DNA of 64,000 nucleotides from a phage, in assembly GCA_027262695.1 (NCBI GenBank), contig GCA_027262695.1_4722.1; one strand, 5' to 3'. Positions 34,798-62,874 of this stretch are shown here, piece after piece (position 1 is the first letter of the stretch; every line of letters starts with the position of its first letter). The position numbers and the translations under genes are program-made. The notes beneath the pieces are model-generated. The model saw only the letters and a list, made by a program, of their open reading frames with translations, ran no database searches and had not been told where the DNA came from.

Positions 34798-37059
34798 TTA
34801 CAATTCGAAATCTTCATCGATAACGCGTTGGGTTAGCACCTTGTCGCTGAAGAACTCCACCTTACGTTGATGGTATTTCCGATGTGCTTCAATCGACGTA
34901 CACACCAGATACCAGAACGTGGGTGTCATACCCTCGAACTTCCCTTTCAGCTGACGTAGTCGACCTAACACCTGAATGTTACCAGTTCTCGACCCCATCG
35001 CTAACGTCATGAACGTCATCACCAAGTCAGGAAGATCGATTCCTGTACCAGCCGATTTCACCGTTGTCACACTGATATCATTATCCAGTAACACCATGAA
35101 ATCTTCTTCAGCGGTATAAGGACCTATCTCCAACTCAGGGATACGTTCACTTAAGTAATGCGATAACGACTTGCACATATCAACGGTTGCACAATACACC
35201 AACATCTTCATGCCTTCCTGATATTGGTTCATGAAACCTTTGATAATAACCGTATAGATAAAGTTGAAATAGGCGAGTTTGAGTTGCTTATTCTTCATGA
35301 TAGACTGTTCGAATACCGTGTGAGAATAAGAACCTCCAAAGCCTTTGTATCGGACTTTATCCGTACTGCGTAGTCGATACGTCACCGCATTTACCGCGAT
35401 GTATTTCTTGTATTCACATTTCGCATAACGTGCTTCTTTCGGATACATCAAATACAGCATCCGCTCGATGAACGGATCGTCAGACACCGCCGTTGCCGAC
35501 AGATAAATGATTTCCGGAATATTCGCGTAACACTTCACTTTGAACAAGAAATGCAGAGCTTCGTGACATTCATCGTGGATTAACAATCCAATGCCTGTTT
35601 TCTCCCAGAACTCGACTGGATGGAAAACATAAGGTGCGACACAGTTGTTCTTTTCATAATCGGTTATATAACGCTGAAACATGTTCAGTGAGAATAACGC
35701 AATTTTGAAATCCAACTCACCTTGTTCTACCAGCGTCTGAAATTCCAACATGCTGTAACGAGGAATGTCGGGATGCGGTGGGTCAGACTGGGCTGTACCA
35801 CGTATCTCGATAACATCACCTGGTTCCATACCGAAGAAACTTAGCAGTGAGCTACGCCATCCAGGCATGTACCTCGGTGACAGAATGATGCCCGTCCGTA
35901 CACCACGTCGGAAGGTGATCTCCTGCGACATTGCGGTGTTGTGCGTGACGATATGGTCTTTAATAACATAAAGGCTTTCGTCGTTGTCCACCGTGATGCA
36001 ACGTGCCTTCGCTTTCACCGTCGGCACGATGCCGCCAATCGCTAAACCAGGAAGCGTGTTAACGGGAAGATCATCTGGAATCTCAATGCCGTCAGGAATA
36101 AGCTTAAGCAAATCGGAATGGTAAATTAATGTCTCCATCGTGTAACTATTGATGGGGCATTTATACGCGATTCCCCCTAACCGATAAGCCAACTCCCAGA
36201 CCTCGGTCATTATCTGCGAATCGGTGGTTCTGACCGCAAGGTGAGCCCACCCTTCTTCAACACGCAGTACGCAACGATCTTTGATGAGTTCTCTGAAACG
36301 ATCAAGACCCACGAGTTCTTTCGGTTCGTAAAGTCGGATTCTTACCGGACGAGATCGTGACGATCTGTCATTAAGACGTTCCATGATTTCACTCGTGCTG
36401 AGCACCTTGTCAGGATCCGTGCATTGCCAGAGATGATCACCACACGCTTCAACCATTCGTCCATCTTCAAAGAAGACAGCGTAAAGCTGAATATCGTCAT
36501 GATCAAAGATAGCAGTTACGTTCGTCGGTAAACCATCCGCGCCGATGACCTCATCACCCACCTGGAGCTCACCAATCGGCTTCCAACCGCTTGGAACCTT
36601 AACGGGTGTATGGAGAGCCAATGCTTTCCCAGACCCCGTGCCTGCGGTGTTTAGGCTCATTCTGAAAGGGGTATCCTTACCCCCATCCATGTACTCCAAC
36701 CATTCTTGCTGATCTTCACGCCACGGAAACTTCCAGTTCTTCACAAACTCCACTTCCTTACCTGGAACCGGATCGTGGTAAACGATTTCCAACCACTCCT
36801 TTCGAATTCCTCGAGAAAAGATAAAATCCAAAAACGACTTCAGCTGTTCACGAAGTAAGTAGACCTCGCTATAATCGCTTCTTGCTGCGGCGTAGGTGTT
36901 GATGGTATCGGTGACCATTCTCCGTGTACGAGGGTCGCGTCGTTTCCGTAGATGCAAACAACGGTCTCGAAGGTAATGGCCAATCAAATGGGCAAATCGA
37001 AGTCCGTATCCGCTCAGCTTCATGCCATGCGAGAAGACGTCGATACGAGCTAACTTCAT
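34798..37059 (-). CDS. SF2 DExH helicase interrupted by an intein in motif I
   Basis: Motif I TAGTGSGK|...|T, motif II LIHDECHEA, motif VI TVKSAGTGIDLPDL; 229-aa insert between K145 and T375. Confidence 0.75.
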   Translation of the reverse strand: MKLARIDVFSHGMKLSGYGLRFAHLIGHYLRDRCLHLRKRRDPRTRRMVTDTINTYAAARSDYSEVYLLREQLKSFLDFIFSRGIRKEWLEIVYHDPVPGKEVEFVKNWKFPWREDQQEWLEYMDGGKDTPFRMSLNTAGTGSGKALALHTPVKVPSGWKPIGELQVGDEVIGADGLPTNVTAIFDHDDIQLYAVFFEDGRMVEACGDHLWQCTDPDKVLSTSEIMERLNDRSSRSRPVRIRLYEPKELVGLDRFRELIKDRCVLRVEEGWAHLAVRTTDSQIMTEVWELAYRLGGIAYKCPINSYTMETLIYHSDLLKLIPDGIEIPDDLPVNTLPGLAIGGIVPTVKAKARCITVDNDESLYVIKDHIVTHNTAMSQEITFRRGVRTGIILSPRYMPGWRSSLLSFFGMEPGDVIEIRGTAQSDPPHPDIPRYSMLEFQTLVEQGELDFKIALFSLNMFQRYITDYEKNNCVAPYVFHPVEFWEKTGIGLLIHDECHEALHFLFKVKCYANIPEIIYLSATAVSDDPFIERMLYLMYPKEARYAKCEYKKYIAVNAVTYRLRSTDKVRYKGFGGSYSHTVFEQSIMKNKQLKLAYFNFIYTVIIKGFMNQYQEGMKMLVYCATVDMCKSLSHYLSERIPELEIGPYTAEEDFMVLLDNDISVTTVKSAGTGIDLPDLVMTFMTLAMGSRTGNIQVLGRLRQLKGKFEGMTPTFWYLVCTSIEAHRKYHQRKVEFFSDKVLTQRVIDEDFEL
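35938..36624 (-). mobile_element. mini-intein (class-3-like: Ala1, W-C-T motif)
   Basis: Starts ALALHTPVKV...VGDEVIGADG, block B GRMVEACGDHLW (W at B:12), block F RCITVDN, ends IVTHN followed by Thr; removal restores GSGKT. Confidence 0.7.
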
Positions 37060-39095
37060 AACGTGATTACATCCTCCGGTTTAGGTTCTTTACGCGGTAG
37101 AAGCATGTAGTCGATCGGATGATCTGGCTTCATGGTTGGGATATAACTGTTCGGGTTTTGGAACGCATCCAGTTGCTCTTGGTGAGCGAACTTCATACTC
37201 AAGGAGCGCATGTTCATGTTCTTCTTGAAGGTACTGAAATAACGAGTCGTTCCCTGTTTCGGCATGCGGTAATCTTTCGTGTGTGGTGAACGAATCATAC
37301 TCGCGTAGAGAATAACGTCCAGATGCGATAGATTCATTCGTAAACGTTGCGCACACAGACGATGCCAATAATACAGTACGTTGGCTACTTCTTCTGGTGT
37401 CGCTTCATCTTCCGAAAGGAATCCTGCACTGAACGAACCTTTCCCGAATTTGAATTCACGTTCGATTTCTTTTGCGTATTCCATCATGTTTTTATGGATG
37501 AGTGGCATCTGGAATAGCGTCCGTGAATTGTCCCAATGTTTCAAGTCGAAGATCACAATCCCGTCTGCTGTTACTTCCCAGCTATGGCGTTTGAGATAAC
37601 GGATAAACGCTTTGCTTGGTACAACAGGACGTCCACAGAAATCGAAATTGACTTTGAGTTTACGGTAGCTCTCATCTTTCCTGTCGTAAATCTCCATATC
37701 GCAAAGCGTCATGTTGAACAGACGTTGCGGGATAAGCGAACTGATCTCTTCCGCTTCAGCTACATCGTACAACATGTTCGCCAGACCGAGTTTCATCTTA
37801 ATCAGCACGTGTTTGCCTTTCAGCTCACGGGCTAATTTGATGTCGTTCATGTTCTGGCTGTAACGAAGGATATGTTGATATTCCGGCGGGATTGGTGACG
37901 TAGACACGGTGGACGAACCATCGTGATGTTTGGTCGAAAGAATGTTCTGGGTAACCTGTTGTGAACCTGTACGTGCTGAGCAGTCTCCGATGTTGTCGGT
38001 CAATGCAAAGTTATGGCTTAATTCACCATAGCACGTTGTACAGACACCAGCAGGATCAGAATGATGACAGTAACAAACGGAACGCATGTTCACAATGGTA
38101 CCGATCAATTCTTTCATGTGAGGCTGTATCGACAACAGCGAACCATCTTCACGTAAGATGAATCGACCGTGGAAACCTTTAAGATCGGTTTCATCACGTA
38201 TCGGCATCGGAATGGTTTCTCTGCTTCCACAGTCACCAGGGTGCAGACGCTGTACAACCGCCGTTGCGATTTGCAGCTCACGTCCGAAATATTCTGACTT
38301 CTTAATCTGCTCCTTGTTGAACAACAATGATTTTGCCGCAGAGCGACTTTCTTTCAAACTGTCTGGAAGCGAGATCAAGCCTGCTGCATACGACCGCATC
38401 ACTGGGTCACGGAAGATCTCCGAGTTGATATCGGTTAAGAAGCCACGCATCCCAATACACTGCAATACCTGTCCGATCGATACGTGTTCGGTTCTTACCG
38501 CACGTGCGATAGGGTTGGCATGCAATGTTTTATCGGTACTTAAAACTTTTGTTAGTTTCTTGTATGCGCTCTCAATACCTTCGCGGGTGGGTTCCGCTTC
38601 AGCGATGATTTTCTTCACTTCGGGATGTACGGTAATCTGATAAAAATCATCCGCACAGATGGTCGTTACGTATTCCTCCAACGCATACGTAAAGAAGTTA
38701 TAAACGTGGTTAAACATATCGAACAACGCTTTCCAGAGAACCTCACGATTCTCTTGCGGATACGCATACATGCATTGACGATAGGCTGCGCTTTGTAATG
38801 CAACGGAAGAACCTGCCGTAAACTTGCGTTTATCCACCAGGTTCTCTTTCGTTAACGGTGTCTCAGGATACATGCGATGTAAAGACCAATGCATGTAGCT
38901 AAAGAAAATGCGTCGCGCACGCAATTCATGAACACCATCGTCCATCTCGATATACACACGGTCATTAGGCTGTGCCCACTCGAACACCTCATCAACCGGC
39001 CAATGCATAAGCTCTCGCGCCCGTACACGGCGTTTCGTGGTGATCGTCTGTACTGTATTCATTATTTTTACTTTCCGATTAAGTGGTTTTATCAT
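37056..39095 (-). CDS. RNA polymerase beta-prime-like subunit, C-terminal part
   Basis: SVCYCHHSDPAGVCTTCYG...IGDCSARTGSQQVTQNILSTKHHDG aligns with beta-prime zinc site and trigger loop (CDTDFGVCAHCYG...SIGEPGTQLTMRTFHIGG). Confidence 0.55.
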   Translation of the reverse strand: MIKPLNRKVKIMNTVQTITTKRRVRARELMHWPVDEVFEWAQPNDRVYIEMDDGVHELRARRIFFSYMHWSLHRMYPETPLTKENLVDKRKFTAGSSVALQSAAYRQCMYAYPQENREVLWKALFDMFNHVYNFFTYALEEYVTTICADDFYQITVHPEVKKIIAEAEPTREGIESAYKKLTKVLSTDKTLHANPIARAVRTEHVSIGQVLQCIGMRGFLTDINSEIFRDPVMRSYAAGLISLPDSLKESRSAAKSLLFNKEQIKKSEYFGRELQIATAVVQRLHPGDCGSRETIPMPIRDETDLKGFHGRFILREDGSLLSIQPHMKELIGTIVNMRSVCYCHHSDPAGVCTTCYGELSHNFALTDNIGDCSARTGSQQVTQNILSTKHHDGSSTVSTSPIPPEYQHILRYSQNMNDIKLARELKGKHVLIKMKLGLANMLYDVAEAEEISSLIPQRLFNMTLCDMEIYDRKDESYRKLKVNFDFCGRPVVPSKAFIRYLKRHSWEVTADGIVIFDLKHWDNSRTLFQMPLIHKNMMEYAKEIEREFKFGKGSFSAGFLSEDEATPEEVANVLYYWHRLCAQRLRMNLSHLDVILYASMIRSPHTKDYRMPKQGTTRYFSTFKKNMNMRSLSMKFAHQEQLDAFQNPNSYIPTMKPDHPIDYMLLPRKEPKPEDVITL

Positions 39096-39170
39096 ACAGT
39101 GTATTCATTCCGTTGGAATTTACTCCGGGAGTCCCTTCCCTTAGGTTATATAGGTGTTAATATATCTCGG

Positions 39171-39656
39171 TTATCCTGCTTTCTTCTGAAGGCTATAAGG
39201 ATCCATCGCATCGGAGCGGTCGGCAACGATGGTAAGAATGAAGCCTTTTATCTGTCTCACTTCGGTAACCCGGAGTCCCCTATCGTTACGATAAACATTT
39301 TCTTCGCCGACCAGTTTTGGTCGAATAACATAAACCCCATCAACGAACGGAAACGTTGAATACGGATAAATACCAATACGAATAATATTCGGATGATCAC
39401 CTCGAGGGTCACGTCCAAACACATCAACTCTACCGTAAATCGTGCCGTCCGCACCTTCCACTTCAATAAGGTCGTTGCGAATATCCTGAAACAGTTGTTC
39501 TAAGGTCTCTGCGGGATATGTATAAGCGACGCCTAATGCAACATCCTCAATGGTCTTAACGCTAAATCCGTTAAGCCAAATAATCCGATCATCTGTCCAT
39601 GTTTCTTCATACGCTGTTAATCCGTCGCCGTATATGTTGGCGTGTGCTATCTCCAT
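39171..39656 (-). CDS. hypothetical protein
   Basis: 161-aa ORF. Confidence 0.45.
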   Translation of the reverse strand: MEIAHANIYGDGLTAYEETWTDDRIIWLNGFSVKTIEDVALGVAYTYPAETLEQLFQDIRNDLIEVEGADGTIYGRVDVFGRDPRGDHPNIIRIGIYPYSTFPFVDGVYVIRPKLVGEENVYRNDRGLRVTEVRQIKGFILTIVADRSDAMDPYSLQKKAG

Positions 39657-39760
39657 AATCTCATTTCCTCTTCTCTGTTAGGATAAATGACATGCTGGAT
39701 AACGTTGCCTTTGCATATATTGCTTTATTTCCGTCAGAAATAACGGAAAATAAAAACAAC

Positions 39761-39798
39761 GGCATAAACCCCTCCCACCACCACATGGGAGAGGGAGG
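39761..39798 (-). terminator. GC hairpin followed by GTTTATGCCG box
   Basis: Minus strand CCCTCCC...GGGAGGGG TTTATGCCGTTG. Confidence 0.55.
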
Positions 39799-39805
39799 GT
39801 GTATG

Positions 39806-40168
39806 TTATTCTACATTATCTTCTACGGCTTCGGATTCATCCGCTTCTGCGAAGCTTTCCTGAACCGCAGTGGTATCCCAGTTCGCTGCGTAATCAGCCA
39901 TGGCTTCGCGCAGCGCTTCTTCACCCGCATCACCAGCCAGGTCAAGTACAACCAACCCTTGTGCGACGTTCTGCGCTACGGTATCGATAACCGTTGCATC
40001 CTCTTCAAAGCTACGTACCGGTTCAATGGTACCAACATCAACAGCGTAGTTCGTGGTTGCGGTAAGGACAGCAACCTGTAATGCGTTGCTGTCTTCGTCA
40101 TGAAGTGCTGCTTCAATACCGATTGGACGGGCCAGTTCTTGCAGTGTCAATTTACGAATTAAGTTCAT
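39806..40168 (-). CDS. highly acidic small protein
   Basis: 120 aa, many D/E versus few K/R; shares GLVVLDLAGDAGEEAL-type motif with 40661..41098. Confidence 0.5.
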   Translation of the reverse strand: MNLIRKLTLQELARPIGIEAALHDEDSNALQVAVLTATTNYAVDVGTIEPVRSFEEDATVIDTVAQNVAQGLVVLDLAGDAGEEALREAMADYAANWDTTAVQESFAEADESEAVEDNVE

Positions 40169-40191
40169 TATGTCTTTTCCTCAGGTGAATG

Positions 40192-40542
40192 TTAGCAATC
40201 GTTTAAAACTTTTTCGATACGATGGTTGACAAGCTCATTGAACGACTCTTCTGCTTGTTCGATAATTTCATCAACGTCAATATCTAATCGTTGGGGTTGG
40301 ATGACGTGCTCTTTCATGGTTTCCAGCCAGTATTCGGCTTTAATCATGACGTTAACAACATGTTCAACCTGACTGCGTAGGTCGATAATCTGGCAATCAG
40401 GATTATTAATATCGATGACGTGTCCGTGGTGGTTGATAAACCCAAGCTTATTCGATGCTTTTACGGCATCGCGAGTAAGTTCTTGCAGGATTAACGCATT
40501 TACGTAATTCACTGCGACGGAACGATTTTCTTTATCACTCAT
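40192..40542 (-). CDS. hypothetical protein
   Basis: Start at ATG 40542 after AAAGAGGA (ORF track start 40620 abuts hairpin). Confidence 0.4.
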   Translation of the reverse strand: MSDKENRSVAVNYVNALILQELTRDAVKASNKLGFINHHGHVIDINNPDCQIIDLRSQVEHVVNVMIKAEYWLETMKEHVIQPQRLDIDVDEIIEQAEESFNELVNHRIEKVLNDC

Positions 40543-40610
40543 ACCAGGGATCCTCTTTAAGTGTTCACATTCTAGTGTTAAGCAGTTAAAATAAACCGTT
40601 CCTTTAATCA

Positions 40611-40649
40611 GCATAAACATCCTCCTCCCACCACACGGGCAGGAGGAGG
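40611..40649 (-). terminator. GC hairpin followed by GTTTATGCTG
   Basis: CCTCCTCCC...GGGAGGAGG then TGTTTATGC. Confidence 0.5.
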
Positions 40650-40660
40650 CGTAATATGCA

Positions 40661-41098
40661 TCAGAAAGGAGTACGGTTCTTATATTCGAATAGTGTCTGG
40701 AGGACGCATCGCGTTAACGCGTTTTGTAATTCGATACGTCCTTGTTCCCCTAACAGATCCAACACCATCATCCCTTTTGCTGTTTTCTCTGCCACTTCTT
40801 CACAAATCCGTAAATTGTACACATCATCGTCGTCAAGCTCCTTACGACGGTCAGAGCTGAAACGCATCAGCTCACCTTGACTATCACGAACATCAGCGAA
40901 TGCTTCATAGGCTGCATCAATGTTCGCAGAACGCGTCAAACCCTCCGCTTCGCGCCATTCTCGGTATGTACCATCAAGCGTTTGTTCCTCGCCTGAGGTT
41001 GTTGATTCACTGTTGGTGGTTGGGCGAATTAAATGGGGTGTTATCATCGCTATTACGCTATCGTAATGCTCCATCGTATACCTCGTTAGCTTTCGCAA
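40661..41098 (-). CDS. hypothetical acidic protein (paralog-like to 39806..40168)
   Basis: GMMVLDLLGEQGRIEL motif shared with 39806..40168. Confidence 0.45.
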   Translation of the reverse strand: MRKLTRYTMEHYDSVIAMITPHLIRPTTNSESTTSGEEQTLDGTYREWREAEGLTRSANIDAAYEAFADVRDSQGELMRFSSDRRKELDDDDVYNLRICEEVAEKTAKGMMVLDLLGEQGRIELQNALTRCVLQTLFEYKNRTPF

Positions 41099-43419
41099 TC
41101 ATCAGCATCGATGATCTGACCACCAGCAACGTTCAACTGATGATACAGAATCCTCAACGCACGGTTACCCCCAATGGGATACTTCTCGAAGTTGGTCGCA
41201 ATCGGAATCGCAGAGGGTTTGTCGGTTGCATAGATGCTTTCCGTGATGCTATCCACCTGTTTCGGGTTGTTCGCGTAATCCATGAATACGCTTGCGAACC
41301 ATCCACCGGCAAAGGCGGTGACTTCGCGATGCTCGGATTCACCACAATAACGTGTCGGTTGCTCTTTACCCGGCGAACTGTACTTATCACTGTTGCTGAG
41401 TTTCGACGGCAAACCGTGTGCTTGCAGTTTAGGAATACCCACCGCAGACCAATCGTTCGCTGTCTTCTCCAACATCATGATGTATGTATCACCAATCGCA
41501 ATATCGTTCTTGGTGGTTCGCCATTGGCCAGAACGTCCACGATAGCGTACTGGACCTTTCTTCAACGGGAACTCTCGGATTAGGTTCTCCATACGTTCCG
41601 AACCTGCTGCGATACTGTCTGTCGGAATATAGACTTCCGTACCGTGGCGTTGTACGTAACGGAGATGATCCCATTTATCTTCGTCTGTGATACAGTGCTT
41701 CTCAACAACCTGTTCCACAAACTCAGGACTAACAATATAGTAGTAACGCATCAATGTGTTCCATGCGGTTTCCAGATCGCCTGCATCCATTACTGGTTTC
41801 AGTTCACGCATAATCTGATCACCAACACCGTTGATATAAGGTGCGTTAACACGGCTTAAACTCATCCTTTTAATTACCGTGCTGTCGTCGAACATAAAGT
41901 CCGCGACATTCCCCCATTGGTCTACGGGCATCTCGTCATCTTCCATGATATCCGTTACGACGAATTTATCACCTGCCATACCGGTAAATTTAAATCCGAT
42001 ACCCGGGACTACATCGTAGGTATACGTGATAGTCACACGCCAGTCGTCAAGATTCTCCTTACGGTAATCACGGGTTGGCAACACATGACGTAGCTGACCG
42101 TTCGGATTGCGAATATCGATACCGTGCTCAGCATCAGCGAGGTTCAACCACCACATCACCGTCTGATGATGTCTGATGGGTGTACCAGCACGTTCACGTT
42201 CGTATTTACGCACCGCATCCTGAATACGGGTATACAGCAGACCGATGGCGTTCTCATATTTCAGGAATTGACGATACGGCGGACGCATCTTCTCTTCCAT
42301 CATAATCGCACGCTCACGGGCTTGACGTCCAGAACGACGATGGCGATCACTAACCACATCGATATCCGTCACACGCGCATTCGGTTCTGCGTAGGTAAGG
42401 TCATCGTAAACGTAGTCGACACGCTGCAGGTTGCAGGTCATCATGTCGACGACGCTCAGAATCGGATCGATTTCACGGGTTGCTGCTAACAGACCATCTT
42501 TACGAATACGTTCACCGTTCTCCGGGATTGCCTGATAGACCTCATCGTCGCCGTAGAGATTAATCGGATACCTCGACTTACCTGACGTGATCGTCCGTTT
42601 CTCGATACCGGTACTGGTGAAGTGTTTCAGTACGCCACGACGGGCAACACCCCCATCCTCAATACATTGATAGAAACTCCCAAAACACACCTTGCAATCA
42701 CGTCCGTAGCCCCACTCACGCGTTTCTTGATTGATCGCCGGGCTTTCCATCAAACGAGAGTATCGAGGTACGATCTGGCCTCGACGAAGGGAATGGAACA
42801 AATTGGTGGGTCGAAAACGGAAACCGTACTGCTGATGCATGATGTGATGCTCGGGCACTTCAAGCAAGCGCAGCTCATGGCGGTTACCATCTTCTTGGTT
42901 TTCATACAGCACGTAATGCATCGTGTTTGTCTTGATGCTATTCGCGGTATGCCCAGGTTGAAAACGTGGGATGATATCTATGACGCGAGATTCAACGGGG
43001 AATTCTACCGACCATGTATTCTGACCATACTGGTATTCAATCCCCGTCGTTAATCGGGACGGCTTCGCATCTTTGATAACCAACGCTTGGCTAAGATGTC
43101 CACCAAACATCGCAGCGCGCTGTGCTGAGTTATAATGCAATAGCCCGTTAAGTCCAGTCCCTACACCCGTATACTCCTGTTTAATGGGAATGATTTTACC
43201 TTCAGCGATTGCCTGCTTCACAGATTCATAAAGAGGTTTTTCTTTATAATGCATAGGACTTCCTATTATCGAATTGAGGTACGTCATGTCTAATACGCCC
43301 CTGAACGACTTCCTTAAAACAAACCCAGAAGACCTCATCCACAACCTTGATTTCAGGAACGTTGTTGAGATGCATCTGGAATATTTCAAAAATGCCGGTT
43401 TGGTTTCTACGATAGACAT
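41086..43419 (-). CDS. RNA polymerase beta-like subunit, C-terminal part
   Basis: GMAGDKFVVTDIMEDDEMPVDQWGN...RMSLSRV aligns with beta GRHGNKGV...EDMP...NPLGVPSRMN; GDTYIMMLEK ~ GYMYMLKL; RYCGESEHREVTAFAGGW ~ QRFGEMEVWALEAYGA. Confidence 0.7.
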   Translation of the reverse strand: MSIVETKPAFLKYSRCISTTFLKSRLWMRSSGFVLRKSFRGVLDMTYLNSIIGSPMHYKEKPLYESVKQAIAEGKIIPIKQEYTGVGTGLNGLLHYNSAQRAAMFGGHLSQALVIKDAKPSRLTTGIEYQYGQNTWSVEFPVESRVIDIIPRFQPGHTANSIKTNTMHYVLYENQEDGNRHELRLLEVPEHHIMHQQYGFRFRPTNLFHSLRRGQIVPRYSRLMESPAINQETREWGYGRDCKVCFGSFYQCIEDGGVARRGVLKHFTSTGIEKRTITSGKSRYPINLYGDDEVYQAIPENGERIRKDGLLAATREIDPILSVVDMMTCNLQRVDYVYDDLTYAEPNARVTDIDVVSDRHRRSGRQARERAIMMEEKMRPPYRQFLKYENAIGLLYTRIQDAVRKYERERAGTPIRHHQTVMWWLNLADAEHGIDIRNPNGQLRHVLPTRDYRKENLDDWRVTITYTYDVVPGIGFKFTGMAGDKFVVTDIMEDDEMPVDQWGNVADFMFDDSTVIKRMSLSRVNAPYINGVGDQIMRELKPVMDAGDLETAWNTLMRYYYIVSPEFVEQVVEKHCITDEDKWDHLRYVQRHGTEVYIPTDSIAAGSERMENLIREFPLKKGPVRYRGRSGQWRTTKNDIAIGDTYIMMLEKTANDWSAVGIPKLQAHGLPSKLSNSDKYSSPGKEQPTRYCGESEHREVTAFAGGWFASVFMDYANNPKQVDSITESIYATDKPSAIPIATNFEKYPIGGNRALRILYHQLNVAGGQIIDADDCES

Positions 43420-43639: not shown

Positions 43640-43644
43640 GATAA

Positions 43645-43685
43645 CCCTCCCACGGCGTAAAGCGGCGGGAGGGCATTTATGCCGT
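43645..43685 (+). terminator. GC hairpin followed by TTTATGCCG box, plus orientation
   Basis: CCCTCCC...GGGAGGG CATTTATGCCGTCG after the plus-strand gene. Confidence 0.55.
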
Positions 43686-43705
43686 CGTTCGATGCCTTTA
43701 GTGCA

Positions 43706-45035: not shown

Positions 45036-45041
45036 TATGGA

Positions 45042-53524: not shown

Positions 53525-53545
53525 CGCATCTGTGATGTATCACAG

Positions 53546-53564: not shown

Positions 53565-53573
53565 ATTATTGTA

Positions 53574-54413: not shown

Positions 54414-54441
54414 AAACCCTCCCCGCGCTATGCAGGGAGGG
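54409..54441 (-). terminator. GC hairpin followed by GTTTATGCCG box
   Basis: Minus strand CCCTCCCTGCATAGCGCGGGGAGGG TTTATGCCGTC. Confidence 0.55.
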
Positions 54442-54464
54442 TAGCCATTGGTTGTCTTCGCCGG

Positions 54465-55103
54465 TTAGCCTAATTTACCTCCGGCGATGTTCGTGAAGTC
54501 TTCACCATCAGGGACCTGCAACAGAATACGTGCCATGTCCCAGTTGGTCAATGTGATTGCTTTATCATCGATACTCAGTTCTGGTAGGTCGAGCTCATGA
54601 TCATCGAACTCGTAGGAAATGCTCCATGTTTCATCAGTTTTAGGATCAGTTATCAGCACACCGTCTGTTACACGCATGTAATCAGGGTGCAGCTCATTAC
54701 TGAACGTGCTGAACGGATCGGTGTAACATTCAGCATAACCCTCGATCTGCTGACGCTGTGCCTTCGTACGTAACTCAGGACACGCCATGATCAGCTGTCG
54801 GGAAATGCCGTTCGCCGCTCGGAAATCTTCCACGGTGATACACGGCATCACCACGTCGTCATGGAAGATATTCTCCGACTGTCTCAACAAGGTCTTACGA
54901 AGTTCAGTATAGTTGATCTGATTGAACGTATCGAATGTTGCTAACGATTCCGCGTAAAAATGCTTTACGTGTTCGTTTGCGCCACCGAGACTGTTCATCA
55001 GCTTATGACCATACTCCATAAAGCTTTTATCGAGCCCAGTATTCATTTCTCCGAACCGTAGTGCACGATAGCTGTCTCGTCCACCTGTAAATATTTGCGC
55101 CAT
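54465..55103 (-). CDS. hypothetical protein
   Basis: 212-aa ORF. Confidence 0.5.
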   Translation of the reverse strand: MAQIFTGGRDSYRALRFGEMNTGLDKSFMEYGHKLMNSLGGANEHVKHFYAESLATFDTFNQINYTELRKTLLRQSENIFHDDVVMPCITVEDFRAANGISRQLIMACPELRTKAQRQQIEGYAECYTDPFSTFSNELHPDYMRVTDGVLITDPKTDETWSISYEFDDHELDLPELSIDDKAITLTNWDMARILLQVPDGEDFTNIAGGKLG

Positions 55104-55118
55104 TACAGGCGTCCTCCT

Positions 55119-55356
55119 TTAGCATTGGTTATTGATTGCTTCTATTTCATCGATATACGGTTCTACGTCATCGCCCTCCACGAATTCGTTGAACCAACAG
55201 TCAATCGTTGAGATAACCGGTGACTGATGTTCACATTTCTTAGATACCTTAAACGGAACGTTGTTATCCATCATACCGAGTTCGGGTCGGAATCGCCCGA
55301 AATGTTTCGCAGTCCAAATGTCTGGGACGATATGGTTGTTCATAGCGTCTCCGTCG
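55119..55356 (-). CDS. RNA polymerase beta-prime-like subunit N-terminal part, exon 3
   Basis: Begins C GAC GGA GAC GCT ATG (..DGDAMNNHIVP ~ DGDQMAVHVPL); ELGMMDNNVP ~ ALMMSTNNILSP. Confidence 0.7.
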
Positions 55357-55734
55357 CTGTTTGTCGACTATATCTTCATCTTCATTGCGAAGAGACTCTC
55401 GTTTGGGTTTGTGTTTAACAAAGCCTACTCTACTCAACATCGCGTCTTTCGATAGTCTGTGAGCACACATCTTAACGAATATTCGTGGGTTCCTACAGAC
55501 AGGTGAATATTCTTGTTGAGATGCTTCGCTGCGGATTATTCCCGTCCTACCTCTTTTACCATACCCAGTTCATTACGCTGGCCCTCATCGATGTCACCAT
55601 GATGAGTTGGTGTGTAGTCCGATTACAGAAACTTCCCGTCAATTAGAGAGTTTTAACTATGCTCCTGTTACCAGGAACCAGATCCCGACGGTATCAATAA
55701 ATCAACGTAAGTTATTGATTTAATTGAAAAAACT
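55357..55734 (-). mobile_element. group I intron 2 in beta-prime gene (no ORF)
   Basis: Minus-strand P AATTGACGGGAAG (55643-55631), Q AATCCGCAGCGAAG (55536-55523), R CACAGACTATCG (55460-55449), S AAGATATAGTC (55376-55366). Confidence 0.7.
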
Positions 55735-55747
55735 GAAATCTGCATTA
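55735..55747 (-). CDS. beta-prime micro-exon 2 (13 nt, encodes part of Y-N-A-D-F)
   Basis: Minus-strand ATAATGCAGATTT between the two introns; joined to flanking exons gives ...KGYNADFDGDAM... and a 1494-nt in-frame CDS. Confidence 0.6.
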
Positions 55748-56114
55748 TCTTAATCTTCGATATGGTTCGCTAAGCCATATCCGCACATACGTGCAGCTTA
55801 CGTCTTTCACGTAAGAAGAGACTATATCTTTCACCCTCAGCTTTACCTGTTAGGGGCTCCCATTTCGGCGGTCGTTTGACCGGTGGTTTCCCACGCCGCT
55901 TGGCCCTAACGCCCGTGAGCGATAGTCGTTGAGCACATCTCCGTTCTGGAGACTTCGCTGCGGATTCCTCAATCCTTACTGCTTTTACCGTACCTGAATG
56001 ATTAGTTCAGCCCCACGCTCTGTTCCCAGGCATGGTTGGTGAGCAAGGCTCTAAGTAGGTTCCCGCTATTAGAGAGTTCCTCGTGACAGCATTACTGTGT
56101 CACTGGGCCTAATG
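55748..56114 (-). mobile_element. group I intron 1 in beta-prime gene (no ORF)
   Basis: Minus-strand P AATAGCGGGAAC (56069-56058), Q AATCCGCAGCGAAG (55965-55952), R CAACGACTATCG (55930-55919), S AAGATATAGTC (55829-55819); exon ends GGGT, IGS GCCC. Confidence 0.7.
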
Positions 56115-57357
56115 ACCCTTTCAAGATCATCACGCTTAACCCGATGGTGTTATCCTGCGGGTCGCGTTTAACCTTGGTGATTTCAAGACATTGGTTACTG
56201 CTACGGTCAAGTGATGGATTTCGAACAAAGCCACACACAATCCCATCGAACGGTGTATCAGCAATAAGCTCGTCATGCAGCTCGCTCATCATCGGATGAT
56301 AATTGCGGACATGCTCTGCAACGAACGCACGGGCTGCTCTTGGTGAATAACCACGATGGAATAACTTGGATTGGATATGTTCTTTATTGGTTAGTGTAAA
56401 TGGTGCGTACGGAAAATGCAGATGATAATAACGATGGTTTGCTGTTATCGAACTGATGACCGTACGTGTGGTGAATGGATGTAATGTACCTAATATGTTC
56501 TTACGTGTGATCCCTTTCTTCTTACCAATGAACTCATCGAAAATCGCCGAGTGATACTGCAACAGCTTCAATTGCACTTTCGCCATCCAGTTTTCTTTCT
56601 TTCTGGCGCTTAGTGGCGTGGTTGGATGATAGATGCTATTCAATGTTCCGATGGCGTCTATCGCACCTTCCATTTTGCTGTCAGCGTAACGTCCTGTTGG
56701 CGTGTTCTCGATCACGAACATCATGGCTGCAGGAAAGCTGATGTACTGACTGAAGAATTTATCCCGATGAATACGGATGAATTCGCGTAGCGTATCAACC
56801 TTCTCCATGTTCTTCGGTCCACGTAGTGTGGGTCCTTTATACAAGATCTCCATGATACGATCGAAGTTCTGTATAAAGCTATTTATACCGCGTCGTATTC
56901 CGAATACATCGAATTGCTGTTCCAGATAGTTCTTAAGTTCGATCGGTCGTTTTACGTTCGGACGGTAACTGGCATCAATGAGCCACGTCATCGTTTCAAA
57001 GCTTTTGATATTCAACTCGCTTGCCAGCACGAGATGGACCAACGGGTTAATGAACGCATCGATACCTTCCGGTACGCGCGCCCAGACCGTTGAACGAATC
57101 TCTTGTTCTGCTGGATAAGTGACAACCGTTTTACAGTTCGGGCACACCGTCCCTAATAACTCACCGCGATTATAGAAACCACAACCGCATTGCGGGGTGA
57201 TATCCAAGGTATCGCTCGAGTAAACACGGGTGATGAAACTGTTTAATTTCTTCTTCTCTTCCACGACCTTCGTATCATAATCGTTCAACAATATCGGCGT
57301 AAAAGGAAGTTCTGCGAGCTGTCTATCGAAACTGACGATATCGAGCATGATGGCCAT
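56115..57357 (-). CDS. RNA polymerase beta-prime-like subunit N-terminal part, exon 1
   Basis: Zinc site TPQCGCGFYNRGELLGTVCPNCKTVV ~ beta-prime YECLCGKY...CEKCGVEV; RKNILG...RTVISS ~ RFRQNLLGKRVDYSGRSVI; VRNPSLDRS ~ LNRAPTLHR. Confidence 0.75.
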
Positions 57358-57399
57358 GGGGTATCTCCTGCAAATGAAAAAGAACGTTAGGACGTATAA

Positions 57400-57423
57400 G
57401 GGAGGGAGGTTGCCCTCCCTCCC
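57400..57423 (-). terminator. perfect 10-bp GC hairpin between the 632-aa gene and beta-prime
   Basis: GGGAGGGAGG TTGC CCTCCCTCCC. Confidence 0.55.
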
Positions 57424-57449
57424 GTCAGTTTACATCGAACGTTCTTCCA

Positions 57450-59348
57450 TTAGAACAGGTTGAATGCCCCGCCCATGCCGTTACCGCCCACATTCGGACG
57501 ATCGTTACGTGCGTAGATGTTGCCGCTGATGGTACCCAGACCGCGAGCACGTGCTGCCATGTTACCACGAACAGCGGTGCCTGCCAGATGCTGGATGTTC
57601 TCAGGACGGATGGTGAAGCCTGCTTCAGCAGCCGCTTCAATCAGTGCCTGCAACGCCAGCGGATCGAAATCATAACGCATCGCCCAGCCGGTTTGTTCCC
57701 AGCTACCAGACAGAACGCGGTCGATGATTTCGTGACGAGCAACCACACGCTGAGACATCGACATATCGGTACGGTCGAAGCTGTCTTCCCAAGCTTCTAC
57801 GGTATCCGGGTTGGTGATGTTCATCATGTACAGATCGTCCATATCACGAATATCGTGACGGTTACCGTCCTGGTGGTTGTAGTGACCCAGCGGGATACGG
57901 TTACCGGTCGCGTAGACCAGCGGTGAGCCGTACGGATATTTCTTGCTGAAGCAACCCAGGGTAACATCATCGAACGCACGGAAGAGGGCTTTGTAGCCTT
58001 CGGAGTATTCCTGTACGTCCCCTTCAACATTACCCGAGAAGATCTTCTCAGCCGCCGGGATCATACGCAGCAGCCAGCTGTACTCGCCTTCTTCTGGTAC
58101 ATCGATAGAGATCAGCAGAGACGGATACAGAACCTGTTGCAGGAACTTGTAAATCTGCTCGTTGGTTTGCGTAGACAGATCCAGCGGTGCAGTCACTTCA
58201 GGATCCAGCACCATCGCCAGAGCACCTGGGTTATGCGGACCAATACCACGAGCCGCGTTGCTGATTAAAGACTGTGCCCATGCCATGCCGCTGTTCAGCG
58301 TAGCGATGGTACCAATCAGACCCAGCACGAAGCTGTTCGGCGTGAACGCATCCAGTTCCAGCGGATACATGCTGGTCATTACGTAGCGCGGCTGGTACTG
58401 AACAGTTGGCGGTACCGGATAACCGTTAACCAGAACAGGACCTTGCTGGAAGGTCGGGTTCTGCGGGCTGTAGGTCAGATCGATATAACCGGTGGATGCA
58501 ACCAGACGCTGCTGGCTATCGTAATCGCCCATCGCTTGACGGATGCGGTTAGAGATAGTTACAGTAATGTCGGAGCGTACCGGGTTACCCGCGATATCAC
58601 TGTCCTGCATGCCGCTGGTGTTATACTGAACGCTGCTGATCGGCTGGTCGCTTGCCATCATACCCAGGTTGAACTGAGGCAGGCCCAGTCTGTCAGCAAA
58701 ACGCATTTCGGTTGCCGTCTGGATCGCGTTATCTGCTGCAGACAGCAGGGTGGTTGCCAGATGCGCAGATTCAGCAGTGATTTCATTGGTCACAACAGCC
58801 AGACCAGCGATACGTACCGTACCGTTGGCTTTACCACCGATAGCCGCATACATCGCTGCCATGACTTCGTTGATGAACGTGCCGTTCAGGTTATCCACCC
58901 AAGTACATGGTACCAGGATGTTACCGTGAGGACCACGTTCTTCACGACGTGGCAGCGGAGCCAGGCCAGCAACCAGCGGAAGGACGTAACCGAAGAAGTG
59001 GTTATGATCGCCCACTTTTACACCGCTCATCACAACCAGGGTCGGATACGGTACGCTGTACTGGTTCGGGTCAACCGCAACAAAGATGAAGTCGTCTTTG
59101 AACTGGGTATCTTCCAGATATTTCTCCATCAGACGACGGAGATTCAGTACCTGCTCGGAGCCGGTATTACGGCTGATACGACGGCTCAGTGTACGGTTGA
59201 TCGTACGCATCGTATGAGTTACTTTAGGACGGTCAGCAAAATCTGCAGCGGTTTCGACCGCTTCGTTAGCGCGCTGCGCCGCGCGGGTTTCAGCTACGCG
59301 GATGTCTACGTTATCGTTACCGTTATTGTTACGTACGTCTAAGCCCAT
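57450..59348 (-). CDS. large early protein, candidate nuclear-shell (chimallin-like) protein
   Basis: 632 aa, TATATTAC-type box 71 nt upstream, directly upstream of beta-prime gene (as recalled for phiKZ gp54/gp55); no diagnostic motif identified. Confidence 0.4.
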   Translation of the reverse strand: MGLDVRNNNGNDNVDIRVAETRAAQRANEAVETAADFADRPKVTHTMRTINRTLSRRISRNTGSEQVLNLRRLMEKYLEDTQFKDDFIFVAVDPNQYSVPYPTLVVMSGVKVGDHNHFFGYVLPLVAGLAPLPRREERGPHGNILVPCTWVDNLNGTFINEVMAAMYAAIGGKANGTVRIAGLAVVTNEITAESAHLATTLLSAADNAIQTATEMRFADRLGLPQFNLGMMASDQPISSVQYNTSGMQDSDIAGNPVRSDITVTISNRIRQAMGDYDSQQRLVASTGYIDLTYSPQNPTFQQGPVLVNGYPVPPTVQYQPRYVMTSMYPLELDAFTPNSFVLGLIGTIATLNSGMAWAQSLISNAARGIGPHNPGALAMVLDPEVTAPLDLSTQTNEQIYKFLQQVLYPSLLISIDVPEEGEYSWLLRMIPAAEKIFSGNVEGDVQEYSEGYKALFRAFDDVTLGCFSKKYPYGSPLVYATGNRIPLGHYNHQDGNRHDIRDMDDLYMMNITNPDTVEAWEDSFDRTDMSMSQRVVARHEIIDRVLSGSWEQTGWAMRYDFDPLALQALIEAAAEAGFTIRPENIQHLAGTAVRGNMAARARGLGTISGNIYARNDRPNVGGNGMGGAFNLF

Positions 59349-59416
59349 TTGGGAATCCTCTTTTTCTTAACTTTTAAATGACGTCATTGAATCAGCTTTT
59401 TCTCGCTCATTCACCT

Positions 59417-59435
59417 AGGTAATATAACCCTGAAA
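59417..59435 (-). promoter_or_regulatory. candidate early promoter box (minus strand TTTCAGGGTTATATTACCT)
   Basis: Same box upstream of 57450..59348. Confidence 0.5.
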
Positions 59436-59586
59436 TTTTTTTCAATATTGGTGTAACCGTATTGAACGATATAAACCCCCAGGTGAATGCTGCCGAGAAG
59501 CAACATTCTATCTACATATAATCAGGATATGTCTGTAAACTTTTACTTCTCGTCATATCCGTTTACTATCTTCTTACGGAGTTCGT

Positions 59587-60681
59587 ATGTTTCGTGTTTT
59601 AAATAACCTCCCGCGAACATCATCGGGTGTGCAACCCATCCCTCAGAAAGACTACCTAATACGCGAAGTGCAAAGAAACCTACAGACAATCCAGAACCAC
59701 TACCAAGGGTTTACCTTCGCGGTTCAGAGCGATCACATCCTTGCATTGCTGCTCGCACAGCTCCCTATGAGATACGACATCTCAGTACAAACTTACTACG
59801 ACATGATCGCTGACCTTACACCAGAATTGGGGAATCGCGTTAAACTAACAACAGCGCGATACGCGGGTAAGTTATTTAACGGTGCGTTCTATCCGGGATT
59901 GCATGAAGCGATCATTGCAACCAGTGAAAGCCGTCTTATATCGCGTGACGTTCTCGATAACTGGCGTAACTGGTCTCCGGTCAGAATCGTGACACACCCC
60001 TACGCGAATCTTCGCTATATCCCTCTACATCGAAAACCGGTTGAAGAAGGACGGGGTTTTGCGGTCATCATGATCGATGTACCTTTATTAGCGTTGCAGT
60101 ATCGCATGTGGTCATTAGTCATGGGTCACAACGTCGATGGTAAATGGGTGGTTAAAGAACCTGTTACAAGTTTCATTGCCAGTTTTCCTTTGGTCAATGC
60201 ATTATACACACACAACGACGTGGCTATCCGCAATCGTTGCTTATGGGTACCTCCGGCTAAGAATCCGCTCAAGTCACCGATTTACGTCAACGATCTGGAT
60301 AACGTTTTCAGTCAAGTGGTGCTGACCGTCCAACATCAGCTATTACGAAGAAAACGTAGTTACACCGATATGTTGAAACAGATACCGAGTTTATACGAGG
60401 ATCAATTTCAAGCAACACGCATGGGTTACACCATCGATCTTCGACAAACACGGTGGGCAAGGGATCTCGGATGTTTGTCTTTATGGCAACAGCTTGTTAC
60501 CTTGCAAAACGTTTCAGAAAGCGTCGGCTTCAGTAGTCAAACCGACAACGACTTATATCGTGCAGCCGATCGAAGTCTAAAAGAAGGGAATTGGGAATCG
60601 TCTCCTTTACCCGGTGATCTACGACGCGAGGTTATCGCACAGGTTGCTGATCTTTTAAAAATACTTCCCGCTGGTGCATAA
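59587..60681 (+). CDS. hypothetical protein
   Basis: 364-aa plus-strand ORF ending at bidirectional hairpin. Confidence 0.5.
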   Translation: MFRVLNNLPRTSSGVQPIPQKDYLIREVQRNLQTIQNHYQGFTFAVQSDHILALLLAQLPMRYDISVQTYYDMIADLTPELGNRVKLTTARYAGKLFNGAFYPGLHEAIIATSESRLISRDVLDNWRNWSPVRIVTHPYANLRYIPLHRKPVEEGRGFAVIMIDVPLLALQYRMWSLVMGHNVDGKWVVKEPVTSFIASFPLVNALYTHNDVAIRNRCLWVPPAKNPLKSPIYVNDLDNVFSQVVLTVQHQLLRRKRSYTDMLKQIPSLYEDQFQATRMGYTIDLRQTRWARDLGCLSLWQQLVTLQNVSESVGFSSQTDNDLYRAADRSLKEGNWESSPLPGDLRREVIAQVADLLKILPAGA

Positions 60682-60682
60682 T

Positions 60683-60715
60683 CCCCTCCTCCTTCCCTGA
60701 TGGGTTGGAGGAGGG
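60683..60715. terminator. bidirectional hairpin between convergent genes
   Basis: CCCCTCCTCC...GGAGGAGGG followed by TTATG. Confidence 0.55.
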
Positions 60716-60720
60716 TTATG

Positions 60721-62874
60721 TTACTCTGCGGTTTCTTTTTTCGGTTGGTAGCTTGCAGCGATATCTTGGGCTAACAGTGTGTTGTTCTTATTCGAAATGA
60801 AAATACCGTAACTTTCCATTAATGCGTAATACGAGCGAACGAGTGTAGAAATCAATCGACGAATATCCATACCTTGGATGAAAATATCGGGAAGCCCAGA
60901 GGCTTCGATCACCGGTAATGGTATCGTTAAATTGCTTATCGTTTTCTTATCGTTACGTACAATCCAATCACGGAAACGTTGTTGTAACCCTTTATCCTCC
61001 CAGGAATCAATCCAATCATTAAGAAGCGTTTTGTTCTTCGTTGCCAATGGTACACGAACCCCAACATAAGGCGGTTCAGGGCAATGGCCGTACGATTGCG
61101 CAAACACCTCTTCCCACATGTCGTACGACTGCTTGGTAACCGCAACATGTGGTTTTACTTTAACGCGTGTTAAGAAATCAGGATCGCCGCGTTTCATCGA
61201 TTCCACGATTTCGTTTTCTAACGCGATGATATCATCAAGTACTAATCTGATACTGATCTTCTCGTTACGTAACAGTTTATCCATGATACCGCACATCATG
61301 CGCTCAACACGTTGTACGATCATTTTTGGTGCTGATGCGTCACGCATAACGGGACCTTTCAATTCCAGTTTCGGCGGATTGATTGGAACCCCTTCACGCA
61401 TGGTCATGTAACCGTAATAGTTTTTACCCATTGAAGTCAACGACAGAATCAAGAACATATACTCGTTCTTCATTTCCATCACGTACATATGCTCTTTCGC
61501 GACGCCGATATTACCCGAACACATTGCCATCAGATGAACCGTAATCTGCGTAACCAGGTAGATAAGCGTATTCGCTAAGCGCGTTGAAATCGGATTGATC
61601 TCCATGTTGCCAAACCGCCACTGAACCCACTCCTGACAGGTAAATACCGTTGAGTCGGTATCGGACAACACACCCACTTCACGGATGGCTGACGGAAACG
61701 CATAAACACCCGCGGGTTGGTTCTCGGTGCGCCAGAACGCCATAATCAGGTCAGCGTAACTCTGGATACGTTGTAACATTAATTTTGTCGTGGCAGCGGT
61801 AAGACGATAACCCAGTTCGTTGCCTTTTTCTAACGCAACGTAAATCGCTTCACCATTTAAGAACTCGGTACACTGTGCTGTAATCCAGGCAACCGTGTTA
61901 TTATCCATGGAGGCGATAATGGCTTTCGCCTCTTCCATCGTTTCAACAGGTTCGGTGGCCAATTCACATAACGAATCAAGGAAACCACAAACAAACTCAG
62001 GATTCAGTTCACGCAACGAATACAAGTTGTTACTATACATGTAACAGGCGCGTTCCAACGGCGTTAAACCGTTAATCAACTCCTGAATAACCAGTTCTTT
62101 TTCCGGGTCGAAAATATAGCGATGCAGGCATTTTGATACATTAGCCCAAACCTCTTCCGGTGTAGGGTAATGTAGCTGGTATTTTACCATCACCTGCTCA
62201 ATGGCTTTACGATCGCTGTTACGGACAATGCTTACGATATTTTCAATCGCGATATCACAATCGTAATAATGAAAATTACCCGCCAGGAACCGCTCGTTAT
62301 TCGCATTCGCCGAACCGGAAGCGCATCGGCATGTCGTGGTTAAACTCGGATGTGCGATCGGGTTATAAAACGGATTGAATTTAGATGCCTGTGTTCCCGA
62401 CAAACTGTTGTTGTCTAACTTGGTGTTAGTCTGTCGTTTATCATGCAGTTCCGCTTCGTCTTTACGTCCATGTGCTTGTGCAATAGACATTTGTTTCTTT
62501 TGTTTCTTACGCAACTTACCGTTTTCAACCGCGAAGTCGCTTAACACACTGGAACGTGTTTCACGTGGATAACAGTTCGCCCATACCGGGGTAATGATTA
62601 AATTATTTTCTTTGATATCGTTGATATACTGACTGAACTTAATAACTTCTTTTTCTCGGTTTCCTTCGGTACGTTGTGTTAAAACAAGACAGTCAGGATC
62701 AACCATCCCGTGTGCACCACCTGGCTTGATAGTATCAAGTACGAACCGTAATGCTTCTTGTTGAGAAATACCACGCATGCGCATTAAGAACAGGGTATAA
62801 TCCTGCACCGCTTCTTTGGTCATATCCAACGTACGACCGTATCCGTTTTCATCGTAAAAGAACGGATTTTCCAT
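60721..62874 (-). CDS. RNA polymerase beta-like subunit, N-terminal part
   Basis: SYGHCPEPPYVGVRVPL resembles beta HYGRVCPIETPEGPNIGLI; size and context fit split-beta arrangement. Confidence 0.45.
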   Translation of the reverse strand: MENPFFYDENGYGRTLDMTKEAVQDYTLFLMRMRGISQQEALRFVLDTIKPGGAHGMVDPDCLVLTQRTEGNREKEVIKFSQYINDIKENNLIITPVWANCYPRETRSSVLSDFAVENGKLRKKQKKQMSIAQAHGRKDEAELHDKRQTNTKLDNNSLSGTQASKFNPFYNPIAHPSLTTTCRCASGSANANNERFLAGNFHYYDCDIAIENIVSIVRNSDRKAIEQVMVKYQLHYPTPEEVWANVSKCLHRYIFDPEKELVIQELINGLTPLERACYMYSNNLYSLRELNPEFVCGFLDSLCELATEPVETMEEAKAIIASMDNNTVAWITAQCTEFLNGEAIYVALEKGNELGYRLTAATTKLMLQRIQSYADLIMAFWRTENQPAGVYAFPSAIREVGVLSDTDSTVFTCQEWVQWRFGNMEINPISTRLANTLIYLVTQITVHLMAMCSGNIGVAKEHMYVMEMKNEYMFLILSLTSMGKNYYGYMTMREGVPINPPKLELKGPVMRDASAPKMIVQRVERMMCGIMDKLLRNEKISIRLVLDDIIALENEIVESMKRGDPDFLTRVKVKPHVAVTKQSYDMWEEVFAQSYGHCPEPPYVGVRVPLATKNKTLLNDWIDSWEDKGLQQRFRDWIVRNDKKTISNLTIPLPVIEASGLPDIFIQGMDIRRLISTLVRSYYALMESYGIFISNKNNTLLAQDIAASYQPKKETAE

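Follow-up and report, generated by a model that had tools for sequence, protein, structure and literature searches.

Tandem group I introns 13 nucleotides apart in the β′-N gene of a non-virion RNA polymerase from a Goslar-like jumbo phage

It is already known that jumbo phages have split RNA polymerases (RNAPs) and that the genes for the RNAP subunits can contain group I introns with HNH endonuclease genes. Here, we describe a phage DNA of 64,000 nucleotides (nt) (GenBank assembly GCA_027262695.1, contig GCA_027262695.1_4722.1; hereafter, the window), which is closely related to Escherichia phage vB_EcoM_Goslar (Goslar) and in which one such subunit gene is interrupted twice within the codons of its catalytic motif. 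Judged by its sequence, the window encodes four of the five subunits of a non-virion RNAP (nvRNAP), namely the N-terminal part of β′ (β′-N), the C-terminal parts of β and β′ (β-C and β′-C) and a fifth subunit resembling gp68 of phage phiKZ. It is highly probable, in our assessment, that the N-terminal part of β (β-N) lies outside the window and that β′-N is joined by the splicing of two group I introns. The four subunit genes are:

37056..39095, minus strand: nvRNAP β′-C, orthologue of phiKZ gp74 (Protein Data Bank (PDB) entry 7OGP, chain D, E=1.2e-85)
41086..43419, minus strand: nvRNAP β-C, orthologue of phiKZ gp71+gp73, uninterrupted (7OGP chain C, E=5.4e-86)
46630..48216, minus strand: nvRNAP fifth subunit, orthologue of phiKZ gp68, 528 amino acids (7OGP_B / 9RJS_B, PHIKZ068, E=5e-28, residues 23-518)
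55119..57357, minus strand: nvRNAP β′-N, orthologue of phiKZ gp55, split by introns (spliced product against 7OGP chain A, gp55+gp56.1, E=8e-75)

The initial annotation had listed four open reading frames (ORFs) on the minus strand, all of which are present, and its placement of the β-C, β′-N and β′-C parts is borne out by matches to chains C, A and D of 7OGP and by PHROG profiles. It had also suspected a fifth small subunit among the neighbouring genes, which is indeed found as the gp68 orthologue at 46630..48216 (tblastn against phiKZ gp68, E=2e-31 to 2e-35), and its description of a split multisubunit RNAP of a phiKZ-like jumbo phage agrees with the 7OGP matches and with the gene order of phiKZ. 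As in the phiKZ nvRNAP, β′ is divided into two polypeptides, one gp55-like (N; 7OGP_A) and one gp74-like (C; 7OGP_D). The β′-C gene matches the PHROG family 'RNA polymerase beta subunit' (E=2e-169), phiKZ gp74 (tblastn, 29.6% over 679 amino acids, E=7e-89) and, weakly, the bridge-helix/trigger-loop part of bacterial β′ (residues 733-976, E=2.5e-4); its true start is likely position 39062 (MNTVQT..., matching the start of Goslar gp165) rather than the ORF start at 39095. For β-C, a PHROG match (E=2e-181) is accompanied by a weak match to residues 1063-1241 of E. coli β (E=0.005) and by a Pfam Rpb2_6 match of 16.3 bits, which is below the cut-off, and the gene likely starts at 43254 (MHYKEK..., the start of Goslar gp171). 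The 55 codons of the mechanically called ORF upstream of this probable start (43255..43419, minus strand) lie over a plus-strand ORF (43274..43639) that corresponds to Goslar gp172. The ORF that covers exon 1 of β′-N (56092..57357) matches a PHROG profile with E=1e-113, and the predicted spliced product also aligns with residues 330-471 of E. coli β′.

The β′-N gene had been described as containing one intron. The presence of intron sequence stands; the number does not, as the gene appears to hold two introns, arranged as follows:

57357..56115, minus strand: exon 1, 1243 nt, ending ...AAAGGGT, with the Cys4 zinc motif CGC...CPNC; collinear with Goslar and aligned with 7OGP_A
56114..55749, minus strand: group I intron 1 (site a), 366 nt, without an endonuclease ORF, after the first base of the Tyr codon in YNADFDGD
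55748..55736, minus strand: micro-exon ATAATGCAGATTT, 13 nt, encoding (Y)NAD(F); joined in frame, and contiguous coding sequence in alleles that lack one or the other of the two introns
55735..55357, minus strand: group I intron 2 (site d), 379 nt, in the Phe codon of NADFDGD; Rfam match, 92% identical to the core of the Goslar intron
55356..55119, minus strand: exon 3, 238 nt, starting CGACGGAGAC, which encodes (F)DGD...; tblastn match to the PHIKZ056.1 region and 7OGP_A alignment through residue 476

A permissive scan of 1.5 kb (54900..56400) gave two separate full-length matches to Rfam family RF00028 (Intron_gpI) on the minus strand, one for intron 2 (55357..55726, 49.2 bits, E=4e-11) and one for intron 1 (55798..56135, 26.9 bits, E=1.9e-4). 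The intron boundaries were set by comparison with alleles that miss one of the insertions. The end of exon 1 is collinear with Goslar, which reads GTGATGATCCTCAAAGGTT/ATAATGCC without interruption (slashes mark insertion points or splice sites); the longer Goslar sequence is ...GTGATGATCCTCAAAGGTT/ATAATGCCGACTT/CAG... and lacks the 366 nt that follow ...AAAGGGT in the window. The 13 bases of the micro-exon are plain contiguous coding sequence both in Goslar, which is devoid of intron 1, and in a contig devoid of intron 2 (L024, NFYZ01000026.1), and empty sites are found in relatives for site a (Goslar and L012) as well as for site d (L012 and L024). The exons join in frame to 1494 nt (1243+13+238) and restore ...LKGYNADFDGDAM..., and the joined product VMILKGYNADFDGDAMN aligns without gaps to mature phiKZ gp55, VLCLKAPNADFDGDQLN, which has been solved experimentally (7OGP). 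A longer reading of the join, ...TIGLSVMILKGYNADFDGDAMNNHIVP..., is likewise gapless against ...SMSVLCLKAPNADFDGDQLNLTLMP... of mature phiKZ gp55, and in many more distant phages the β′-N region is uninterrupted and aligns in a single piece by tblastn. An exon 1 shorter by 9 nt, ending ...GTGATGATCT (56124) as drawn from a hairpin in the Rfam alignment, was rejected: Goslar codes for LKG collinearly at this place, and mature phiKZ gp55 matches. The intact NADFDGD motif (...GYNADFDGDAM...) is obtained only once both introns are removed, and it is not contiguous in the DNA. By its sequence, the β′-N DNA as written could not give a functional protein, the YNADFDGD stretch being cut twice, 13 nt apart. 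Exon 1 reads through into intron 1 to form an ORF of 421 amino acids. As annotated, the gene is a truncated protein without the catalytic motif plus an orphan small ORF. No ORF of at least 60 amino acids, and thus no endonuclease ORF, was found inside either intron of the window.

Every helix of the group I core from P3 to P8, with the P3/P7 pseudoknot, can be drawn in both introns, and the terminal G (intron 1, ...TTAAG; intron 2, ...AACAG) is kept in all variants. In intron 2, P1 consists of CAGAUUU, the 7 nt before the 5′ splice site, and GGAUCUG (7 base pairs (bp), with a U·G at the splice site), and P10 pairs CCGUCG, just upstream of the guide, with CGACGG at the start of exon 3 (6 bp), which corresponds to the classical P1/P10 layout. 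P1 of the Goslar intron is CCGACUU/GAGUCGG; here, synonymous exon changes are matched in the guide, giving two double compensatory changes relative to the window. Intron 1 has a P1 of GGGU/GCCC, again with a U·G at the splice site, and a P10 of UAAUG/CAUUA (5 bp). The micro-exon is tiled by the guide pairings, its bases 2-6 belonging to P10 of intron 1 and its bases 7-13 to P1 of intron 2. Among 7 variants of intron 2, 99.6% of the cells in 99 proposed pairs are paired, and among 8 variants of intron 1 the share is 98.5% for 90 pairs, both values being inflated because the structures were drawn from the same sequences, which are closely related to each other. Changes on both sides of a pair were found six times in intron 2 (P1 twice, P5a, P6b, P7.2 and P8) and five times in intron 1 (P2, P5a twice, P9.1 and P9.2), compared with 0-1 in slid controls, in which the pairing partners were shifted by 1-3 columns. 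Helices P4, P6 and P7 are invariant and therefore uninformative for covariation. Minimum-free-energy folds of the introns, which ignore the pseudoknot and gave z-scores of just -3.1 and -1.5, were set aside as not useful.

The arrangement varies between related phages, whose loci were gathered by looking up the exact 421-amino-acid ORF and by pattern scans. The insertion sites are T/AT (Tyr), AAT/GCT, GCT/GAC, TT/C (Phe) and GCT/ATG, all within ~30 nt; four of them are used by Goslar-like contigs and the fifth by phiKZ. An allele has between one and three introns, some of which contain HNH genes, and the micro-exons measure 13-18 nt. Rfam supports the additional insertions in the relatives as group I introns. 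The following alleles were found:

Sites a and d, as in the window: L005 and L007-L010
Sites a, d and e, three introns and two 13-nt micro-exons: L013/L017, L019, L020, L025 and L006, the last with an HNH gene inside its site-d intron
Sites d (with HNH) and e: Goslar, whose second intron and micro-exon CGACGGTGACGCT are missing from the RefSeq annotation
Sites c and e, with an 18-nt micro-exon GACTTTGACGGTGATGCC: L012
Site a only, with an HNH-like ORF of ~325 amino acids in the P1 loop: L024

In Goslar (NC_048170 ~167847..169654; L001 20343..22150), the site-d intron, which carries the HNH gene gp186, and a site-e intron of 355 nt flank the 13-nt micro-exon CGACGGTGACGCT. The public annotation gives a single Intron_gpI feature and lets gp185 start at an ATG that lies within an intron. 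Close to its 3′ end, the site-d intron of Goslar forms a stem of 14 bp with the HNH gene in the loop; stem and gene are both missing from the copy in the window. Goslar-like contig L012 (IMGVR_UViG_3300011560_000001, 4240..4980) is occupied at sites c and e, and its micro-exon encodes DFDGDA; in its second intron, C and not U precedes the 5′ splice site. In L024 (~6640..8025), where sites d and e are empty, the ORF of ~325 amino acids with the HNH-like motif NHLDGIKYNNRLNNLEW is located between the 5′ splice site and the guide. Viral contigs scanned for an exact pattern spanning the micro-exon gave no match, as intron 1 terminates in TTTAG rather than TTAAG in the relatives. A BLAST search of the phage collection with intron 1 yielded nothing beyond short alignments with ribozyme cores of unrelated phages. 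A similar ribozyme core was also seen in four metagenome or viral contigs (L018, L021 and L023, with a match of ~79% to the intron 1 core, and L022), for which neither β′-N similarity nor a tblastx match to the Goslar genome (E<=1e-10) was found.

The reading of the locus as a twice-spliced gene builds on observed gene identities, intron boundaries, ribozyme cores with their covariation, and presence or absence of the introns in the phage population. Splicing itself, its order and a role in phage-phage competition are what we infer from them. Each intron would pick its own splice sites by means of its internal guide sequence, and two guanosine-initiated splicing reactions would join exon 1, the micro-exon and exon 3. 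The product would be a β′-N of 497 amino acids with an intact magnesium-binding motif and active site, and this spliced protein of ~57 kDa would span the junction peptide GYNADFDGDAMNNHIVPDIWTAK. Two ribozymes of ~370 nt, and three in some relatives, would have to act on 13-nt exons, which makes the β′-N locus a natural test case for how densely group I introns can be packed and for the importance of splicing order.

In phage PhiPA3, the HNH endonuclease gp210 resides in a group I intron of an RNAP β-like gene and cuts the intron-less allele of a co-infecting phage (Science 2024, PMC11620839). What the two systems share is that a mobile group I intron has entered a jumbo-phage RNAP gene at conserved active-site residues; however, the PhiPA3 intron is a single one in another subunit gene with its endonuclease present, whereas the window has two introns without endonuclease, 13 nt apart. 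The introns described here may belong to a mobile set that competes for the YNADFDGD motif across related phages, and their spread or exclusion could be brought about by HNH endonucleases encoded in the introns, which relatives have and the window has lost. By analogy with PhiPA3 gp210 (PMC11620839), endonuclease-less introns would persist because an occupied site removes the target of a rival phage's endonuclease, and their spread would come about through co-conversion with an adjacent intron that does have an endonuclease. It is tempting to speculate that the ~30 nt encoding YNADFDGDAM in this essential nvRNAP β′ gene form a battleground for a guild of mobile introns, with the endonuclease-less ones acting as immunity and hitch-hiking elements between co-infecting phages, although we regard this as a tentative proposal and would rate it somewhat below even chances. 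The variable presence of the introns, and of HNH genes within them, connects the locus with the competition between phages by intron endonucleases (PMC11620839), and the idea should be testable in E. coli.

Several observations weigh against splicing of two introns as proposed here. Both intron scores (49.2 and 26.9) are under the Rfam gathering score of 50, even though their E-values are significant, and the default gathering scan of the whole window (1..64000) reported no RNA family despite the two introns. P1 of intron 1 has just 4 bp and is invariant, leaving it without covariation support; intron 2 is without the long stem that encloses the endonuclease gene in Goslar and has only 9 nt after P7, a minimal 3′ domain; and the inflated share of paired cells noted above adds to this. 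Furthermore, a long-read transcriptome of phiKZ contained no spliced reads for the analogous introns (PMC10914365). The chain in 7OGP is named a PHIKZ055/PHIKZ056.1 fusion and has NADFDGD intact, for which an origin from infected cells and one from a joined construct are both conceivable. If β′-N were a pseudogene with decayed, non-splicing insertions and the phage used another polymerase, the lack of an endonuclease ORF in either intron, the truncated 3′ domain of intron 2 and the sub-threshold Rfam scores would be accounted for. The exons, however, retain 93-99% protein identity to Goslar without frameshifts or stops, the substitutions within the introns keep base pairing, with five and six double compensatory pairs, and transcription of middle and late genes is carried out by the nvRNAP in this phage group (PMC12908238). 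The arrangement is also repeated in many independent contigs of near-genome length; public assemblies contain the exact 421-amino-acid read-through ORF in 58 blocks, contigs of 241-245 kb among them, and the intron arrangement is therefore neither an assembly error nor the mark of a dead genome. We thus consider a pseudogene very unlikely. A single intron spanning 56114..55357, with the 13 nt between the cores as intron sequence, would be in line with the RefSeq record of Goslar, in which only one Intron_gpI feature is annotated in the β′-N gene, and with the empty gathering scan of the window, but with such an intron removed, GGGT would abut CGACGG, the reading frame would change and NADF would be lost. 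Moreover, there are two complete group I cores, each with its own U·G at the 5′ splice site and its own terminal G, and each core is separately absent from a close relative that keeps the 13 nt as coding sequence, which makes the single intron highly improbable. Two introns flanking a coding micro-exon remain our preferred reading. For annotation, it matters that neither intron of the window reaches the Rfam gathering score and that the Goslar record marks one of two.

The RNAP set in the window is incomplete, because the supposed β-N gene is a DNA polymerase gene and phiKZ gp123, the β-N subunit, has no match in the window. The gene in question is:

60721..62874, minus strand: divergent family-B DNA polymerase, orthologue of phiKZ gp50, and not RNAP β-N (Pfam PF20286, E=4.4e-202, full length)

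The initial annotation had taken this ORF for the N-terminal part of β and had accordingly proposed a complete split RNAP within 26 kb, with all four β and β′ fragments of the catalytic core in 37056..62874. Its large size, its strand, which is that of the RNAP cluster, and its position beside this cluster speak for such an assignment; its full-length Pfam match, the PHROG family 'DNA polymerase' (E=4e-205) and tblastn against phiKZ gp50 (E=5e-126) nevertheless identify it as the DNA polymerase, so that profile searches place three of the four genes in the RNAP families but not this one. With gp123 as query, tblastn gave no match in the 64-kb window (best E=1.2), yet the same query found Goslar gp039 (39.8-41.6 kb, adjoining the major capsid gene, E=4.5e-53), which lies ~108 kb from the RNAP cluster and beyond the stretch that is syntenic with the window. 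The annotation of the syntenic part of Goslar (100-147 kb) contains no β-N gene either. Hence, the C part of a split β is found in the window (7OGP_C, E=5.4e-86) and its N part is seen in the relative Goslar, and β-N is presumably encoded outside the window. A complete core in 37056..62874 is refuted, its remaining probability being next to nothing. As to which of the two phage RNAPs this is, a question the initial annotation had left for later, the set appears to be the non-virion one of the phiKZ type, because the best matches are 7OGP chains, the order gp50-gp54-gp55...gp68-gp75 is that of phiKZ and cross-matches are absent: the RNAP proteins of the window have no match to any other RNAP-annotated Goslar gene. 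Assignment to the virion-packaged RNAP could appeal to the fact that both sets consist of split β/β′ homologues that the PHROG names do not separate. It is exceedingly improbable, however, given that the top matches are the nvRNAP chains of 7OGP, that phiKZ gp80 (virion β′-C) matches the window gene with E=0.002 against 5e-89 for gp74, that gp68, whose orthologue is present, is known solely as the nvRNAP fifth subunit, that the synteny beside chimallin is that of phiKZ gp54-gp55, and that the Goslar orthologue of gp80 is situated elsewhere. In this phage group, it is the nvRNAP by which middle and late genes are transcribed (PMC12908238).

The RNAP as such is ordinary, being an enzyme of a known kind that is encoded here in a new Goslar-like genome. 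In common with the phiKZ nvRNAP (gp55, gp68, gp71-73, gp74 and gp123; 7OGP), it has the split of β′ into N and C parts, a β-C polypeptide, the fifth subunit, the gene order beside chimallin and NADFDGD in the gp55-like subunit, while protein identity is just 24-32%. In phiKZ, the HNH gene gp72 lies between gp71 and gp73 (L002 23276..26596), whereas β-C is uninterrupted in the window and in Goslar, and intron occupancy therefore differs gene by gene between lineages. The β′-N gene of phiKZ has one intron between N and A with the HNH gene gp56, compared with two introns (sites a and d) without an endonuclease ORF in the window. The Goslar locus (NC_048170; gp247, gp186 and gp185) has the same genes at ~89-92% nucleotide identity and a site-d core that is 92% identical; it differs in lacking intron 1 (site a), in carrying the HNH gene in the 14-bp stem of its site-d intron and in an unannotated intron at site e (GCT/ATG), which is empty in the window. 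Several self-splicing introns in one essential phage gene are known from nrdE of Staphylococcus phage Twort, which has two group I introns; in the window, the exon between the introns is just 13 nt long and lies within a catalytic motif of 7 residues. No report of tandem introns with micro-exons in the β′ catalytic motif of the Goslar group was found in the literature searched, the coverage of which is incomplete.

In a search of the phage collection, a piece of 7.9 kb from the region showed 89% nucleotide identity to Goslar, and no other phage matched at that level. Because of this identity and of a chimallin ORF, the window is assigned to a Goslar-like, nucleus-forming jumbo phage of E. coli. 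The region is a conserved early-gene block, with the gene order of phiKZ gp50 (DNA polymerase)...gp54 (chimallin)-gp55...gp68-gp69-gp70-gp71/73-gp74-gp75 (helicase), and contains the following further genes:

57450..59348, minus strand: chimallin, the phage nucleus shell protein, orthologue of phiKZ gp54 (Pfam PF25677, E=9.6e-26)
43706..46628, minus strand: two conserved genes of unknown function between the RNAP genes, orthologues of phiKZ gp70 and gp69 (tblastn, E=4e-23 and 7e-11)
34798..37059, minus strand: gp75-like SF2 helicase gene, 753 amino acids (524 in Goslar)

Megablast of the β′-N locus (55100..57400) against 5,426 complete E. coli genomes and the PLSDB plasmids gave no match. One of its ORFs has exact copies in many draft assemblies, E. 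coli assemblies among them (e.g., GCA_041342935.1, on a contig of 244,573 bp), and in metagenomes. For the draft isolates with this Goslar-like locus, carriage and contamination are both conceivable.

The helicase gene contains an insertion of 229 amino acids (35938..36624, minus strand), which splits the Walker A motif (GTGSGK/ALALHTPV...IVTHN/T). Residue 1 of the insertion is Ala, block B contains Trp, block F contains Cys and the end is Thr-His-Asn, a combination that we take to be the signature of class 3 inteins. The insertion is absent from Goslar and matches the mini-intein structures of Mycobacterium DnaB (6RIX and 6BS8) with E=1e-13.

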